Positions 15,789 to 60,585 of a stretch of DNA of 64,000 nucleotides are shown piece after piece. The stretch's first letter is position 1; each line of letters begins with the position of its first letter. Both the position numbers and the translations under genes were made by a program. This stretch comes from Octopus vulgaris (lineage: Eukaryota). The stretch lies in assembly GCA_951406725.2 (NCBI GenBank), contig OX597816.1:17484001-17548000 (forward strand). Direction: 5' to 3'. Under the pieces are notes generated by a model. That model was not told where the DNA came from, made no database searches, and worked only from the letters and a program-made list of their open reading frames with translations.

Positions 15789-16545
15789 GGCACAGGCGTG
15801 GCAGTGTGGTAAGAAACTTGCTTCCCAAGCACATCGTTCTGCGTTCAGTCTCACTGCTTGGCACCTTGGGTTAGTGTCTTCTATTGTAATCTTGAGACGA
15901 CCAAAGACTTGTGAATGGATTTGGTAAACGGAAATTTAAAGAACCCCGTCGTATATACATATATATATATATATATATATATATATATATATATATATAT
16001 ATATATATATGTGTGTGTGTGTGTGTGTGTAAATACACACACACACACATATATATATATAGGGAGAATTCACAAAAAGAAAAACAAAAGACGAAGACAG
16101 GTGGTGTAGACAACGAACAAATGTATTAGTATAACGCTCGGGAAGTTAAAAAGTCTAAGGTTTCGAGCCTACGCTCTTCCACAGAAAGGAACACAGAAAG
16201 AAACAAGGAGAGAAAATATAGAATGTATAGTGGCTACTGATCTATCATGGCGCTCTCTCTCTCTCTCTCTCTCTCTCTCTATATATATATATATATATAT
16301 ATATATATATATATATTTATGTGTGTGTTTGTGTTTGTATATCTGCTTTTGTCCCGCTCACCATCGCTTGACAACCGATGTTGGTGTATTTACGTCCCCT
16401 TAACTTAGATTTTCGGCAAAAAGACCAATAGAATAAGTACTAGGGTTACAAAGAATAAGTCCAGAGGGTCAATTTGTTTGACAAAAGGCGGTGCTCCAGC
16501 ATGGCTGCAGTCAAATGACAGTAACAAATAAAAGAATAAAGGAAT
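15789..16545 (+). mobile_element. SINE family B (tRNA head, CORE-like, internal TA/CA microsatellite) with nested insertion
   Basis: GGCACAGGCGTGGCAGTGTGGTAAG head, CCTTGGG core, tail GGTGCTCCAGCATGGCTGCAGTC..AAAAGA. Confidence 0.85.
16061..16252 (-). mobile_element. Short Penelope-like terminal fragment with degenerate hammerhead motif
   Basis: Flanked by (TA)n and (CT)n. Minus strand CTTT-CTGTGGA-A-GAGC-GTAG-GCTC-GAAAC. Homologous copy at 28480-28675. Confidence 0.65.
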
Positions 16546-16809
16546 ATATATAACTTGTTTTTAATCTCTCAGCGACAGATATACAATAACAGCACCGGAT
16601 AATAAAGTTTATTTGCCACCAGAATGTGGCTGTCCTCTAAAGGACGATGCTACTGTTGTTTAATCCCCAGGAAAACATCTTTTCCAGCTGGCTATCGACA
16701 CACAGTCGATGATGATGATGATGATGACGATGATGATGATGATGATGATGATGATGATGATGATGACTACGACGACGACAACCACGACTATGTTGATAAC
16801 AGCAACAAC

Positions 16810-16925
16810 AGTGCGATCACCTGACCAGACATAGGAAACTGGACACTGTTGTAGTGAATAAAAAAGAAAGAACGTATGATTATCGACATAGCATGCCCCG
16901 GTGACAAGAAGATCAATGTGAAATA
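16810..16925 (+). pseudogene. R4/Dong-clade LINE restriction-like endonuclease fragment
   Basis: QCDHLTRHRKLDTVVVNKKE..IIDIACPGD; near-identical reverse complement of 19385-19498. Confidence 0.8.
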
Positions 16926-16942
16926 ATAAATAATAATAAATG

Positions 16943-17492
16943 TCCTGATGCTGTACCAGGCAGTGGTTCTCATGGCTTCTGATCTTAACTGATTTACATT
17001 TTTTTTGTCTTGGTATAAAAGATGGGCTAAAGCAAATATTCTGCTCAATACCACAGATTTGCTTGTCAGTTGTTTGACCTTAACCAGTTGAGCTTGTCCC
17101 TTAGTGGCTGACGATATGTGCATCTCTGATCACGAGAAGAAGTAGTGGGGGAGCATCATAGCCATGTGTTGAGAGGGATTCTTTGAGGTTTGAATAATTC
17201 ACCCCTGGAAACATGGGTATTTTGTTCAACGTCCTTAGGCAAACCTTATCCAGGGATCTTTTTAACAGGATAGGCTACTCGACCTGACGAAAATTCTAAT
17301 TGGGTCCCACTTGCAGGGTCATGCGCTATTTAACTTGATATGAGATCACCATGTCAAGCATGTGATGCATGTGCCAGGTGTACCCTTATCAGACGGGTGG
17401 TCATGATGGGTATATTGGGCTTCGTATATTTTACTCCAGTGTCACTTTGATGGCATGCACTGCTCTCTCACTCAATAAAAATAATTATTATT
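16943..17492 (+). mobile_element. Retroposon 3' segment ending in (TAA)n, probably a Dong-like 3' UTR or dependent SINE
   Basis: Ends CTCACTCAATAAAAATAATTATT; an inverted homologous copy lies at 18160-18610. Confidence 0.75.
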
Positions 17493-17493
17493 A

Positions 17494-17697
17494 TGTAAGA
17501 TTGGTGAATCGATCGTGGTCAAAAAGTCGATTAGAGTCTAGCATAAACAAGACTTGTATAGAAAACACAACTGAATCGATAATTGATCAATAAAGTTTAT
17601 TAATCAATGCACCAACTACACTTCGTCCCATACCGAGATTAGACGGGAAATTCCGATAAAATGACAGATGCTATACAACTCCATTTAGAAAGCAACA
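17494..17697. mobile_element. Possible solo LTR
   Basis: TGT...ACA termini, internal AATAAA/TTTATT, inserted within (TTA)n so the TSD cannot be resolved. Confidence 0.3.
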
Positions 17698-17899
17698 TTA
17701 TTATTATTATTATTATTATTATTATTATTATTATTATTATTATTATTAATAATATCATCAGCATCAGCATCATCATTATCATTATTATTATTATTATAAG
17801 AATCGATTATAATAATAATAATAATAATAATAATAATAATAATAATAATAATAATAATTATTATTAATATTATTATTATTATTATTATTATTATTATTA

Positions 17900-18152
17900 T
17901 TTTATTGTCTTTGCACAGCTTCTGACTGACGCTGGAGATACACTACCGTGTCAACTGTTAACTTCTAGTGAACTAAGGTAACACCCCTTAGTTTTCGAGT
18001 ACCAGCCGGAGTATTCGAGTGGTTCCAAGCTGTGCTGTTTTCTGCAAGTGCTCCACCCTTATTGCAGCCCCTATTTGTTCTATGTACTTCTCGAGATTTT
18101 TACTCACAACAATTATTGATGCTATTACCACCATTTCCAGCGACCACAATTG
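17900..18152 (-). pseudogene. R4/Dong-clade LINE 3' end (family 1)
   Basis: LEKYIEQIGAAIRVEHLQKTAQLGTTRILRLVLE, then a short UTR and (TAA)n. Confidence 0.85.
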
Positions 18153-57750: not shown

Positions 57751-58384
57751 CCAGAGAATCTGCCTGGTTTGATAGTAAATTAATTTGAATAATAAAGTTT
57801 TATAATTTCCTCTGTTATTTTTCTTTTCGAATGACAGTCTGTAATTGATAGCTTACTGTTTGATATGTTACAAATTTTAATGAAAACCTTTCAAACCTTC
57901 CAGGTAGAGAAATCATAGAACTGGGTTTTTTTTTCTTCTTTCTGTGCCTGCAGTTAGAATCGATATCATCTTTTAACATTAATTTAAAATTTTTGACTGG
58001 TGAAAAATAATCGTTAGAGCATCGGCCACAATGCCTGCGGTATTTAGTAACTAAACGCCTTTCTTTTTATTATTCCGAAGAAGATAAAATAGGTACCAGC
58101 GAAGGGTTGGAATCGTAATATCGATTCTTTCTTCTACCATGGTATTCTACAGACGCAAGAAATCAACGTTAGTTTACTCTTCAAGCCATAAATTTAAAAC
58201 CTGAACGTTAGTAAGCGTTTTAACAATCTTCACTTTCTCTTAACATGTTAATACGGAATTTTTATTAACCCATTCCCTTTCGACAAATAGCGCCATAGCG
58301 TCTGCGCTATATCGATTGTAACATTAACACGGCCAGAAATTTTACACAGTCGATAATGCGACTGAAGATATATTACTCTTAGAC

Positions 58385-58925
58385 TGTTACTCTTTCCCTT
58401 GCTTCGGTCATTAGATTGTGGCCATGCTGGGGCACCACCTTCAAGTGTTTAGCCGAATAAATCGACTCTGGTGCTTATTTTGTTCCGGTTTTTATTATTC
58501 TGCCCGTATATTTTGCTGAATCAGTAAGTTACGGGATTGTAAACAAACCAACAGCGATGTCAAGTTGTGGTGGTGTGGAGAAATGCAAACACAGACACAA
58601 ATGAACACGCATATATACACCTTTATGTATGTATGTATGTATGTATGTATGTATGTATGTATGTATGTATGTATGTATGTATGTGTCTGTCTGTCTCTGT
58701 CTGTCTGTCTGTCTGTCTCTCTCTCTCTCTCTCTCTATCTCTATATATATATGACGAGCTTCCACACAGTTTCCGCCTGTCAGATTCACTCACAAGGCAT
58801 TGGTCGGCTTAGGGGCTATTGTGAAAGAAAAAAAAATGACACTTGTCCAAGGTGCCGCGCAGTGGGAACGAACCCGAAAACAAAAGCTTGCAAAAGAACG
58901 CTTCCCAACTACACAACCATATTCA
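58385..58925 (-). mobile_element. SINE family B, older copy
   Basis: Homology to family B tail and head. Confidence 0.8.
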
Positions 58926-59332
58926 CCCATCTACATTTTATTCAGCCATTTTATAACCTTCTGCTCGCAAAGACAACATGGATGCCACTAGTCTGAAGTG
59001 GCTCGGAAAGAGACCAAGTTTACATAGATACTCGATACACTCAACAAAACAAACGACTTAGTCAGCTTAGTGTGTGATATTGAATTTGGCGGATTAGTAC
59101 TTAATAGTAATTATATCAGTTTAACACAATACTAAAATCGAAAGCAGAATATTGTCATATTGCAGAAGGAAACTTCGATAAATTCTCTTTCATCATAATT
59201 TTATTGCGAATATCAAAGTTTTAAAGGCCTATAAATTATCTATCTATCTATCTATCTATCTATCTATCTATCTATCTATCTATCTATCTATCTATCTATC
59301 TATCTATCTATCTATCTATCTATCTATCTATC

Positions 59333-59565
59333 TTTCTTTCTTTTGTTCCTTTTCCTTTTCTTTTTTTTCTTTTTATTCTTTTTATTTTTTCTTTTATTTA
59401 TTTTTTTTTTTCTGTTCTTTTCTTCCCTTTTACGATCCCTCTTGATCGAAAACCTACGCCATCCCTTTTTTTCTTTTGTTTTTGTTTTTTTCATCCCCCA
59501 AAAGAAAAGCTCTACCTTGTAACTTGTCCCATCTGTGTGCAGCCCTGTGTGGCCAATAAAGAAAC
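59333..59565 (+). mobile_element. T-rich LINE-like 3' UTR inserted in (TATC)n
   Basis: Ends TTGTCCCATCTGTGTGCAGCCCTGTGTGGCCAATAAAGAAA, with (TATC)n on both sides. Confidence 0.6.
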
Positions 59566-59680
59566 TTATCTATCTATTTATCTATCTATATATATATGGC
59601 ACAGAAGAAATTTTGGCTTCTATTTTTAGCGGTACTACCCTTGTATATGCTCCCGTACTACCCTTGTGTATATATATATA

Positions 59681-60147
59681 GAGGGCATTATTACACATAA
59701 ATGCCGCACTCTAGGAGGGACTTTTAAAGTCATAACTACTAAATATAAACAAATCGTACCGAATGCAATTCTCGAAGCGAGTCAACTCGAAGCGGTTGTC
59801 TATCTGGTTTGTTGATTTTGTTCATTAATGATATATCTTGAGTTCGCTACACTGACGAGCAAGGGACGCAGATACTGCGTTAATTGCGAAATCACAGGTG
59901 ATCTGTAGCTAAATTCTGTTTTTAAATGACTCGCTTCGAGAATTGCATTCGGTACGATTTGTTTATATTTGGTAGTTATGACTTTAAAAGTCCCTTCTAG
60001 CGTGCGGCATTTATGTGTAATAATGCCCTCTATATAATATAAATAAATATCTTCAAGTGAAAAAATTTACAGATTTTTTCTCTTATGAGGTTTTTCACGC
60101 TAACTACTTGATAATTTCTTATTAAGATTTTATTCTATTTTTTAAAT
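59681..60147 (+). mobile_element. Penelope-like element with inverted duplication, between (TA)n tracts
   Basis: 104-bp inverted arms at 59681-59784 and 59927-60030 enclose a hammerhead. Confidence 0.75.
59846..59909 (+). ncRNA. Type I hammerhead ribozyme, canonical core
   Basis: GCTACA-CTGACGA-GCAA..GACGCAG ATA CTGCGTT..TTGC-GAAA-TCAC AG GTGA-TC-TGTAGC; cleavage predicted after AUC (59903). Confidence 0.85.
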
Positions 60148-60498
60148 TTATATATATATATATATATATATATATATATATATATATATATATATATATA
60201 TATATATATATATATGTATATATACATATATATGTATATATATATATATATGTATATATATATATATACATATACATATATACATCTATATATATATCTT
60301 TTATATTTTATATATTCAAATAAAGGTTATAAACCTCATTAAGGGATAGTAAAACCCAATGAAAATACTGGTTAGTTACCAATCCATAGAAAGTTCAACT
60401 ATAAACCGTGGTTCATATATTTATATATTTAAAGAATAAGGAGAAAATGGAGAAGCAATTAATAAAATATCATTTATTAATTATAAAATATGACAACA

Positions 60499-60585
60499 TC
60501 TCTGACAGCTGTTTCGATTCAGAAATCTTTAGATAATTAATTTATAAAATTAAAATCATTATAAGATGAATCTCCTAAGCGGTAG
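60499..60585 (-). ncRNA. Degenerate hammerhead motif
   Basis: Minus strand: CTTAGGA-GATTCA...TGAATC-GAAACAGCTGTC; G5 mutated and stem I weak. Confidence 0.55.

Follow-up and report, generated by a model that had tools for sequence, protein, structure and literature searches.

Type I hammerhead ribozymes in a 64-kb window of the Octopus vulgaris genome, probable remnants of truncated Penelope-like elements

Hammerhead motifs of the window

A 64,000-nucleotide stretch of the Octopus vulgaris genome (assembly GCA_951406725.2, contig OX597816.1, positions 17,484,001 to 17,548,000 of the forward strand), called the window below and numbered from its first nucleotide, was analysed for hammerhead ribozymes and for the repeats that carry them, which probably derive from Penelope-like elements (PLEs). 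A preliminary description had reported seven hammerhead-shaped motifs of type I, and all seven are present at the coordinates it gave. A full core and three helices were found in three of them (20761, 38232, and 59846), whereas the other four (16153, 28551, 53990, and 60499) are decayed. The motifs, together with an additional candidate absent from that description, are as follows.

20761-20882, minus strand: intact type I hammerhead, core CUGAGGA, GUA site, 5-bp stem I, descriptor match
38224-38279 (motif 38232-38273), plus strand: intact canonical-type type I hammerhead, U3-A8 covariant core, GUC site
59846-59909, plus strand: intact type I hammerhead, core CUGACGA, AUC site, 6-bp stem I
16153-16188, minus strand: decayed hammerhead-like motif in a 190-bp island (16062-16252) between microsatellites
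28551-28586, plus strand: decayed hammerhead-like motif of the 16153 family, not adjoining (TA)n
53990-54024, minus strand: decayed minimal-type hammerhead, exact core, ACGU palindrome, extra nucleotide before stem II
60499-60585, minus strand: decayed hammerhead with an altered G5, a stem II base of 6 bp, and the palindrome ACAGCUGU
21969-22069, minus strand: additional candidate, U3-A8 core with one mismatch, AGCU palindrome

The strict descriptor used for the census, whose thresholds were chosen after the motifs had been seen, required a CUGANGA or U3-A8 covariant core, GAAA, UH, and all of stems I, II, and III. It matched the window exactly three times, at 20761-20882 (minus strand), 38232-38273, and 59846-59909 (both plus strand). 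The mean was 0.0125 matches in 400 local dinucleotide shuffles, none of which reached three, and 300 permuted-core decoys run on the real sequence gave an expectation of 0.003; a looser setting again returned three matches, with 0.02 expected. When the descriptor was reduced to the core plus stem II with one mismatch, the count was at chance level (19 observed, 19.6 expected). The excess of motifs over shuffled sequence holds for the full descriptor, and it supports the view that several unrelated repeat families contribute genuine type I hammerheads. Among 28 pairwise comparisons of the islands, 16153 and 28551 alone were clearly related, in agreement with the earlier count of at least six different sequences, and the islands at 54 kb and 60.5 kb gave one weak pairwise score (z 5.1). 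The Rfam hammerhead models produced no match at the gathering score anywhere in the window. Likewise, no hammerhead was among the 150 of 493 matches listed in a whole-window scan by E value, which were dominated by microsatellite matches to microRNA models, nor did local scans of 59690-60030 and 38145-38435 yield one at E values up to 10.

The three intact motifs differ in anatomy. In the 20761 motif, stem II is long and stem III comprises 2 to 3 bp (ACA-UU-UGU); the predicted active monomer fold lies 0.8 kcal/mol above the minimum. Its island measures 434 bp (20707-21140) and abuts (TA)n with its 3' end, TA lying 61 nt 3' of the cleavage site. At approximately 20945-20965 on the minus strand, upstream of this hammerhead, one frame gives the peptide TLIPNEL, with a faint resemblance to PLE endonuclease ends; the residues expected upstream are absent. 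The 38232 motif, present in a single copy within an island of 300 bp (38140-38439) flanked by (TA)n runs, has a stem I of 6 bp followed by a UAC bulge and five more pairs, a 4-bp stem II with a CAAUA loop, and the palindrome ACGCGU as stem III. In the 59846 motif, stem II is prolonged by a 7-bp hairpin, and stem III (AUCAC-AG-GUGAU) can form 4 bp and a tetraloop as a monomer or a near-palindromic duplex as a dimer, the predicted active monomer fold being 0.6 kcal/mol above the minimum. Unconstrained two-molecule folding predicts the active dimer as the minimum for both 38232 (-48.9 kcal/mol) and 59846 (-57.2 kcal/mol), which fits the dimer-compatible stem III that had been proposed. The term "minimal", applied to the whole set in the preliminary description, suits none of the intact motifs, nor 60499: the extra nucleotide of PLE minimal hammerheads is confined to the decayed 53990 and 16153/28551 motifs and to the 21969 candidate.

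Stem I is almost identical (GCURYA pairing with UGUAGC) in three unrelated motifs, at 21969-22069 (minus strand), 38232-38273, and 59846-59909 (both plus strand), and again in a hammerhead-shaped motif of a viral contig (L001, 601-649, minus strand). The scan of viral contigs with this stem I pattern returned four loci, of which L001 is hammerhead-shaped and three are apparently chance matches; the 38.2-kb pattern had no match in these contigs. A literature search on the shared stem I motif found no ribozyme paper by title.

The remaining five motifs (16153, 28551, 53990, 60499, and 21969) are at best decayed relics. The 16153 and 28551 copies form one family (81% identity across 170 nt) and share an identical 19-nt block around stem II; core position A6 is altered, and stem III is intact in neither copy, so loose a pattern being at the chance level given above. 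Their pattern was not found in viral contigs and had one chance match, in a bacterial coding region, in metagenome contigs. The 53990 motif has U at position 17 and lacks stem I; its pattern occurs at three loci in viral contigs, none with a PLE-like frame seen upstream. Stem I is also missing from the 60499 motif, for which the post hoc p value is about 0.04. The 21969 candidate has U17 and a 6-bp stem I, with a post hoc p value of about 0.03 and (TA)n located 200 to 220 nt away on its 3' side; its predicted active fold is 3.8 kcal/mol above the minimum.

Repeats that carry the motifs

The repeats around two of the motifs, and the microsatellite next to one of them, contribute the following features.

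59669-59784, minus strand: 5' part of the 59.8-kb element, an inverted copy of 59927-60041, 116 bp, 96.6% identical
59785-60148, plus strand: direct body of the multicopy repeat with the 59846 hammerhead, running up to (TA)n at 60149
60149-60315, no strand: (TA)n tract at which two unrelated elements with hammerheads end on their 3' sides
54338-54457, minus strand: broken C-terminal end of a Neptune-type GIY-YIG endonuclease (by-eye match), one in-frame stop

The segment 59785-60148 is read as the 5'-truncated 3' end of a PLE, and 59669-59784 is a 5' inversion, not a terminal inverted repeat. The evidence comes from other copies. Contigs of 4 of the 24 listed sequencing runs were aligned to 59430-60140 at 80% likeness, and all four runs were positive, with 1838, 2125, 751, and 177 matching contigs. 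In each run, contig pieces bridge position 60035 and are collinear for at least 31 nt on either side of the right arm's end, the family extending at least 100 bp beyond that arm towards 60140. Because the pieces continue past it in four runs, the right arm is internal to the family unit, and since inversion joints lie at many positions, the symmetry of the arms is specific to the copy in the window. Specifically, 13 of the 15 joints listed (of 16) are of the inversion type, and no two of these share a position: the strand switches at 8, and 5 lead from the inverted arm into the direct body. The summed contig depth, used for its direction alone because it is no copy number, is 42 to 55 on the flank in two of the runs. 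Over the hammerhead it ranges from hundreds to tens of thousands, and 3' of the ribozyme it reaches as much as several hundred thousand. Variable inversion points and a large surplus of 3' over 5' material are as expected of truncation.

The whole 59846 hammerhead is also present in other copies, since two listed contig pieces cover it from end to end (8 and 20 differences). Its 12 listed variable sites comprise N7, H17 (C to A), six sites of the loop II region, and four of stem I. The 13 core positions are free of listed variants (p 0.048), as are the 27 positions of the core and stems II and III (p 0.0006). The changes at 59847/59908, 59849/59906, and 59871/59875 would preserve pairing if they co-occurred, and the paired frequencies do not always match. 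This distribution is suggestive of selection on the ribozyme. A 9-nt word, CTCGAAGCG, stands on both sides of the inversion junction (59770-59795 and 59931-59940), and its complement occurs immediately 3' of the hammerhead; the word may represent template-switch microhomology or a long-range stem enclosing the ribozyme.

The endonuclease remnant at 54338-54457 shares its strand with the 54-kb hammerhead and precedes it by approximately 320 nt. By eye and with alignment gaps ignored, 19 of 40 residues of its peptide are identical to the C-terminus of Neptune1_Ap in a supplementary alignment of PMC8557442. For this remnant, Pfam gave no match at the curated cut-off, a word-indexed protein search returned two candidates, neither of them scored, and phmmer returned three matches, all to repetitive proteins and judged spurious, no PLE protein being recovered by either search. 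Since the database searches did not confirm it, the Neptune assignment of the 54-kb copy is one made by eye. An exact 29-bp tandem duplication (54290-54347) is found where the remnant of the Neptune-like open reading frame (ORF) ends.

The preliminary description had placed most motifs next to (TA)n and had ascribed them to families without ORFs. As for the first claim, five of the seven motifs have a (TA)n run at most 250 nt away on their 3' side, compared with a background of 12 to 17% (p 0.0004 to 0.002), whereas the two or three of seven on the 5' side are not significant; the test covered this single window at three run-length settings, with a 250-nt cut-off of our choosing. The 59.8-kb and 60.5-kb elements face the tract 60149-60315 with their 3' ends from opposite sides. 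An insertion bias for microsatellites has been described for Neptune PLEs (PMC8557442). The second claim fares less well, as the 54-kb copy retains the end of a PLE ORF and the other islands can be explained by 5' truncation. Being a truncated element of the autonomous type, the 54-kb copy does not speak for an ORF-less family. The other short islands showed no ORF trace, as judged from stop-to-stop frames and Pfam, and neither a reverse transcriptase nor a full ORF nor a partial tandem was found in the window.

Origin of the motifs and competing explanations

The three intact and four or five decayed motifs are probably the 5'-truncated 3' ends, consisting of pseudo-long terminal repeat (pseudo-LTR) and tail, of several Penelope-like retrotransposons. 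As the preliminary description had proposed, a PLE origin is indicated, directly by the endonuclease remnant of the 54-kb copy and structurally for the 59.8-kb copy, whose truncation, inverted 5' copy, and one-sided tail match the published PLE layout (PMC8557442). PLE parentage of the other families is inferred. The position of the 54-kb motif downstream of a Neptune-like C-terminus on the same strand and the confinement of the TA bias to the 3' side further support this origin. The mechanism that we envisage draws on the window together with PMC4209133 and PMC8557442. In PLE transcripts, a hammerhead near the 3' end would cut multimeric RNA, and would do so as a dimer in those elements whose stem III consists of a short palindrome; reverse transcription would start from the 3' end of the element at a nick, often in (TA)n, and would mostly halt after 200 to 600 nt, an occasional template switch yielding an inverted 5' copy. 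The remnant would be a solo hammerhead with a short tail set against a microsatellite, which would later decay. The window would accordingly seem to record six or seven PLE families of different ages.

Several observations weigh against derivation from truncated PLEs. ORF evidence exists for just one of the six to seven families, in the form of a by-eye match, and the hammerhead models of Rfam gave no match. Two of the seven motifs, those at 28.5 kb and 54 kb, lack adjoining (TA)n. At 59.8 kb, one contig per run stands behind each joint, one joint recurring in three runs; the depths, as stated, do not count copies; and the ribozyme variants come from the listed rows, with 33 further rows beyond these and pair co-occurrence not visible. 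Finally, the canonical anatomy of the 38232 motif in its 300-bp island is retrozyme-like.

This last point leads to a different proposal, which we regard as unlikely: that several families, best the 38.2-, 59.8-, and 20.8-kb ones, are non-autonomous units, either solo retrozyme monomers or derivatives of PLEs resembling short interspersed nuclear elements (SINEs), that would be transcribed by themselves, cut by their hammerheads, and copied by the proteins of autonomous PLEs. The best-fitting candidate is the 38.2-kb motif, with canonical helix sizes and an island inside the retrozyme size range (170 to 400 nt); in addition, the islands at 38.2, 59.8, and 20.8 kb show no ORF trace, the 59.8-kb family conserves its ribozyme core among the listed variants, and a 2026 preprint links retrozymes to PLE pseudo-LTRs, from which it derives those of animals, and reports dispersed monomers (10.64898/2026.07.22.740005). 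However, tandem arrangement defines retrozymes, and no hammerhead lies inside any tandem array of the window. In the 59.8-kb family the inversion points vary and the 3' part is far better represented than the 5' part, the single joint there that "goes back" excludes the hammerhead, and islands so short would reach no ORF even in autonomous elements. A 59.8-kb element in the form of a miniature inverted-repeat transposable element (MITE) with 116-bp terminal inverted repeats, inserted at TA and having captured a hammerhead, is scarcely credible. The arms are indeed 96.6% identical and TA-rich sequence lies outside both, and a search for MITEs with hammerheads turned up no paper describing such an element; against this, the contigs are collinear past the right arm in all four runs and the inversion joints lie at many positions. 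MITE identity was rejected on the ground that the right arm is internal to the family unit.

Chance resemblance would account for the four decayed motifs if the level of the one-mismatch pattern is taken as a guide, and the p values of 60499 and 21969 are post hoc, at 0.03 to 0.04. We nevertheless think this improbable, given the PLE ORF context of the 54-kb motif, the 19-nt identical block around stem II within the 81% alignment of 16153 and 28551, and the (TA)n runs that three of the five decayed or candidate motifs have at most 250 nt away in the 3' direction. The suggestion that the intact solo hammerheads are intronic and cleave enough host pre-mRNA to matter biologically, which the preliminary description had raised for an intronic setting, appears very improbable. 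The predicted active monomer folds of 59846 and 20761, within 0.6 to 0.8 kcal/mol of the minimum, would permit it, and about 42 to 44% of Xenopus retrozymes overlap introns. Yet no gene was found among the translated segments of the window, the intact motifs are on opposite strands, half of the motifs are decayed, and the 38.2-kb motif needs a partner copy. Moreover, published activities are low: PLE minimal hammerheads cleave poorly even as dimers (PMC4209133), and only one of nine retrozyme dimers assayed showed cleavage (bioRxiv 10.64898/2026.07.22.740005).

Relation to known systems and setting of the window

For metazoan PLE hammerheads, 2,000 to 9,000 motifs per genome have been described, mostly as single motifs in many families and probably belonging to truncated PLEs, and the U3-A8 core variant and the palindromic stem III are already on record (PMC4209133). 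The motifs of the window resemble that set in type I topology, palindromic stem III, number of families, U3-A8 core, and G10.1-C11.1 pair, and the 54-kb and 16/28-kb motifs share its extra nucleotide before stem II. In contrast, the extra nucleotide is absent from all three intact motifs, of which one has a stem III of 4 to 5 bp that could fold as a monomer and one a stem II region of approximately 90 nt. The local density of three intact motifs per 64 kb looks higher than reported there, although one selected window cannot establish an excess. PLEs are further characterized by heavy 5' truncation, inverted 5'-truncated copies, and a tail at one end (PMC8557442). The Neptune-clade PLEs with an endonuclease (EN+) of that article correspond to the 54-kb copy, in which the C-terminal GIY-YIG end precedes the hammerhead, and to the 59.8-kb copy with its inverted 5'-truncated part and one-sided tail, as well as to the microsatellite bias in the window; they differ in that the window offers no reverse transcriptase, full ORF, or partial tandem and that a clade can be assigned for one family only. 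Non-LTR retrozymes consist of tandem units of 150 to 450 bp, each with a hammerhead, and more than 6,000 motifs in 16 families are known from a coral (PMC7229834). The canonical type I hammerhead at 38.2 kb, in an AT-rich ORF-free unit of approximately 300 bp, is similar to these elements (PMC7229834; 10.64898/2026.07.22.740005), as is the occurrence of multiple families in one genome; unlike them, the window shows no tandem arrangement, and the other islands resemble truncated tails.

For O. vulgaris, 31 recently active Penelope-like families have been listed (PMC13282606). A literature search, with subscription papers mostly outside its coverage, found no dedicated study of hammerheads in octopus or cephalopods. 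The overall pattern is already published, with hammerheads that stand alone and belong to many families, the core variant U3-A8, 5' copies in inverted orientation, and the preference for microsatellites. The finding adds new family members to the known association of PLE tails with type I hammerheads, and Rfam misses these motifs. Of interest beyond this are the local density and one family whose ribozyme is possibly active as a monomer. Should the density prove to be genome-wide, and should the 59.8-kb ribozyme cleave at physiological Mg2+, many transcript sites of a large, repeat-rich genome would be self-cleaving, and the putative role of hammerheads in PLE transposition would gain a natural test case. 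A stronger version, which we consider improbable, would make this the densest hammerhead load yet in an animal (approximately one intact motif per 20 kb), composed of several young families that derive from PLEs, lack ORFs, and insert preferentially at (TA)n, with a monomer-competent 59.8-kb ribozyme under purifying selection and a stem I shared by three families. On that version, the 59.8-kb ribozyme would therefore cut host transcripts reading through it, and the near-identical stem I of three unrelated families would give the released RNAs the same 5' end.

The window has a GC content of 28 to 45% per 2-kb bin; microsatellites make up about 20% of it, and about 25% is repeated elsewhere within it. 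No protein-coding gene was detected, and Pfam gave no match at the curated cut-off among 150 translated segments (149 of the 205 stop-to-stop frames of at least 55 amino acids plus one hand-defined segment of 40 amino acids). A SINE-like repeat of approximately 180 bp is very abundant (1344-1948, 13475-15290, 27700-29950, 42800-47340, and others), often as two or three head-to-tail units along with nested copies, and contains no hammerhead according to the descriptor; the abundant short repeats of the window presumably resemble octopus SINEs, a label on which no conclusion is built. A separate element at 60640-61040 borders the 5' side of the 60.5-kb motif; 36 nt of it weakly match 9824-9859, and its ends look like what we take to be the Helitron/DINE-1 type. 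The segments 17034-17360 and 18285-18611 form an inverted pair (327 nt, 90% complementary, spaced by 924 nt), probably two opposed copies of one repeat. At 41462-41896, a minisatellite comprises approximately 19 copies of a 23-bp unit, which resembles the start of a repeat near 55980.

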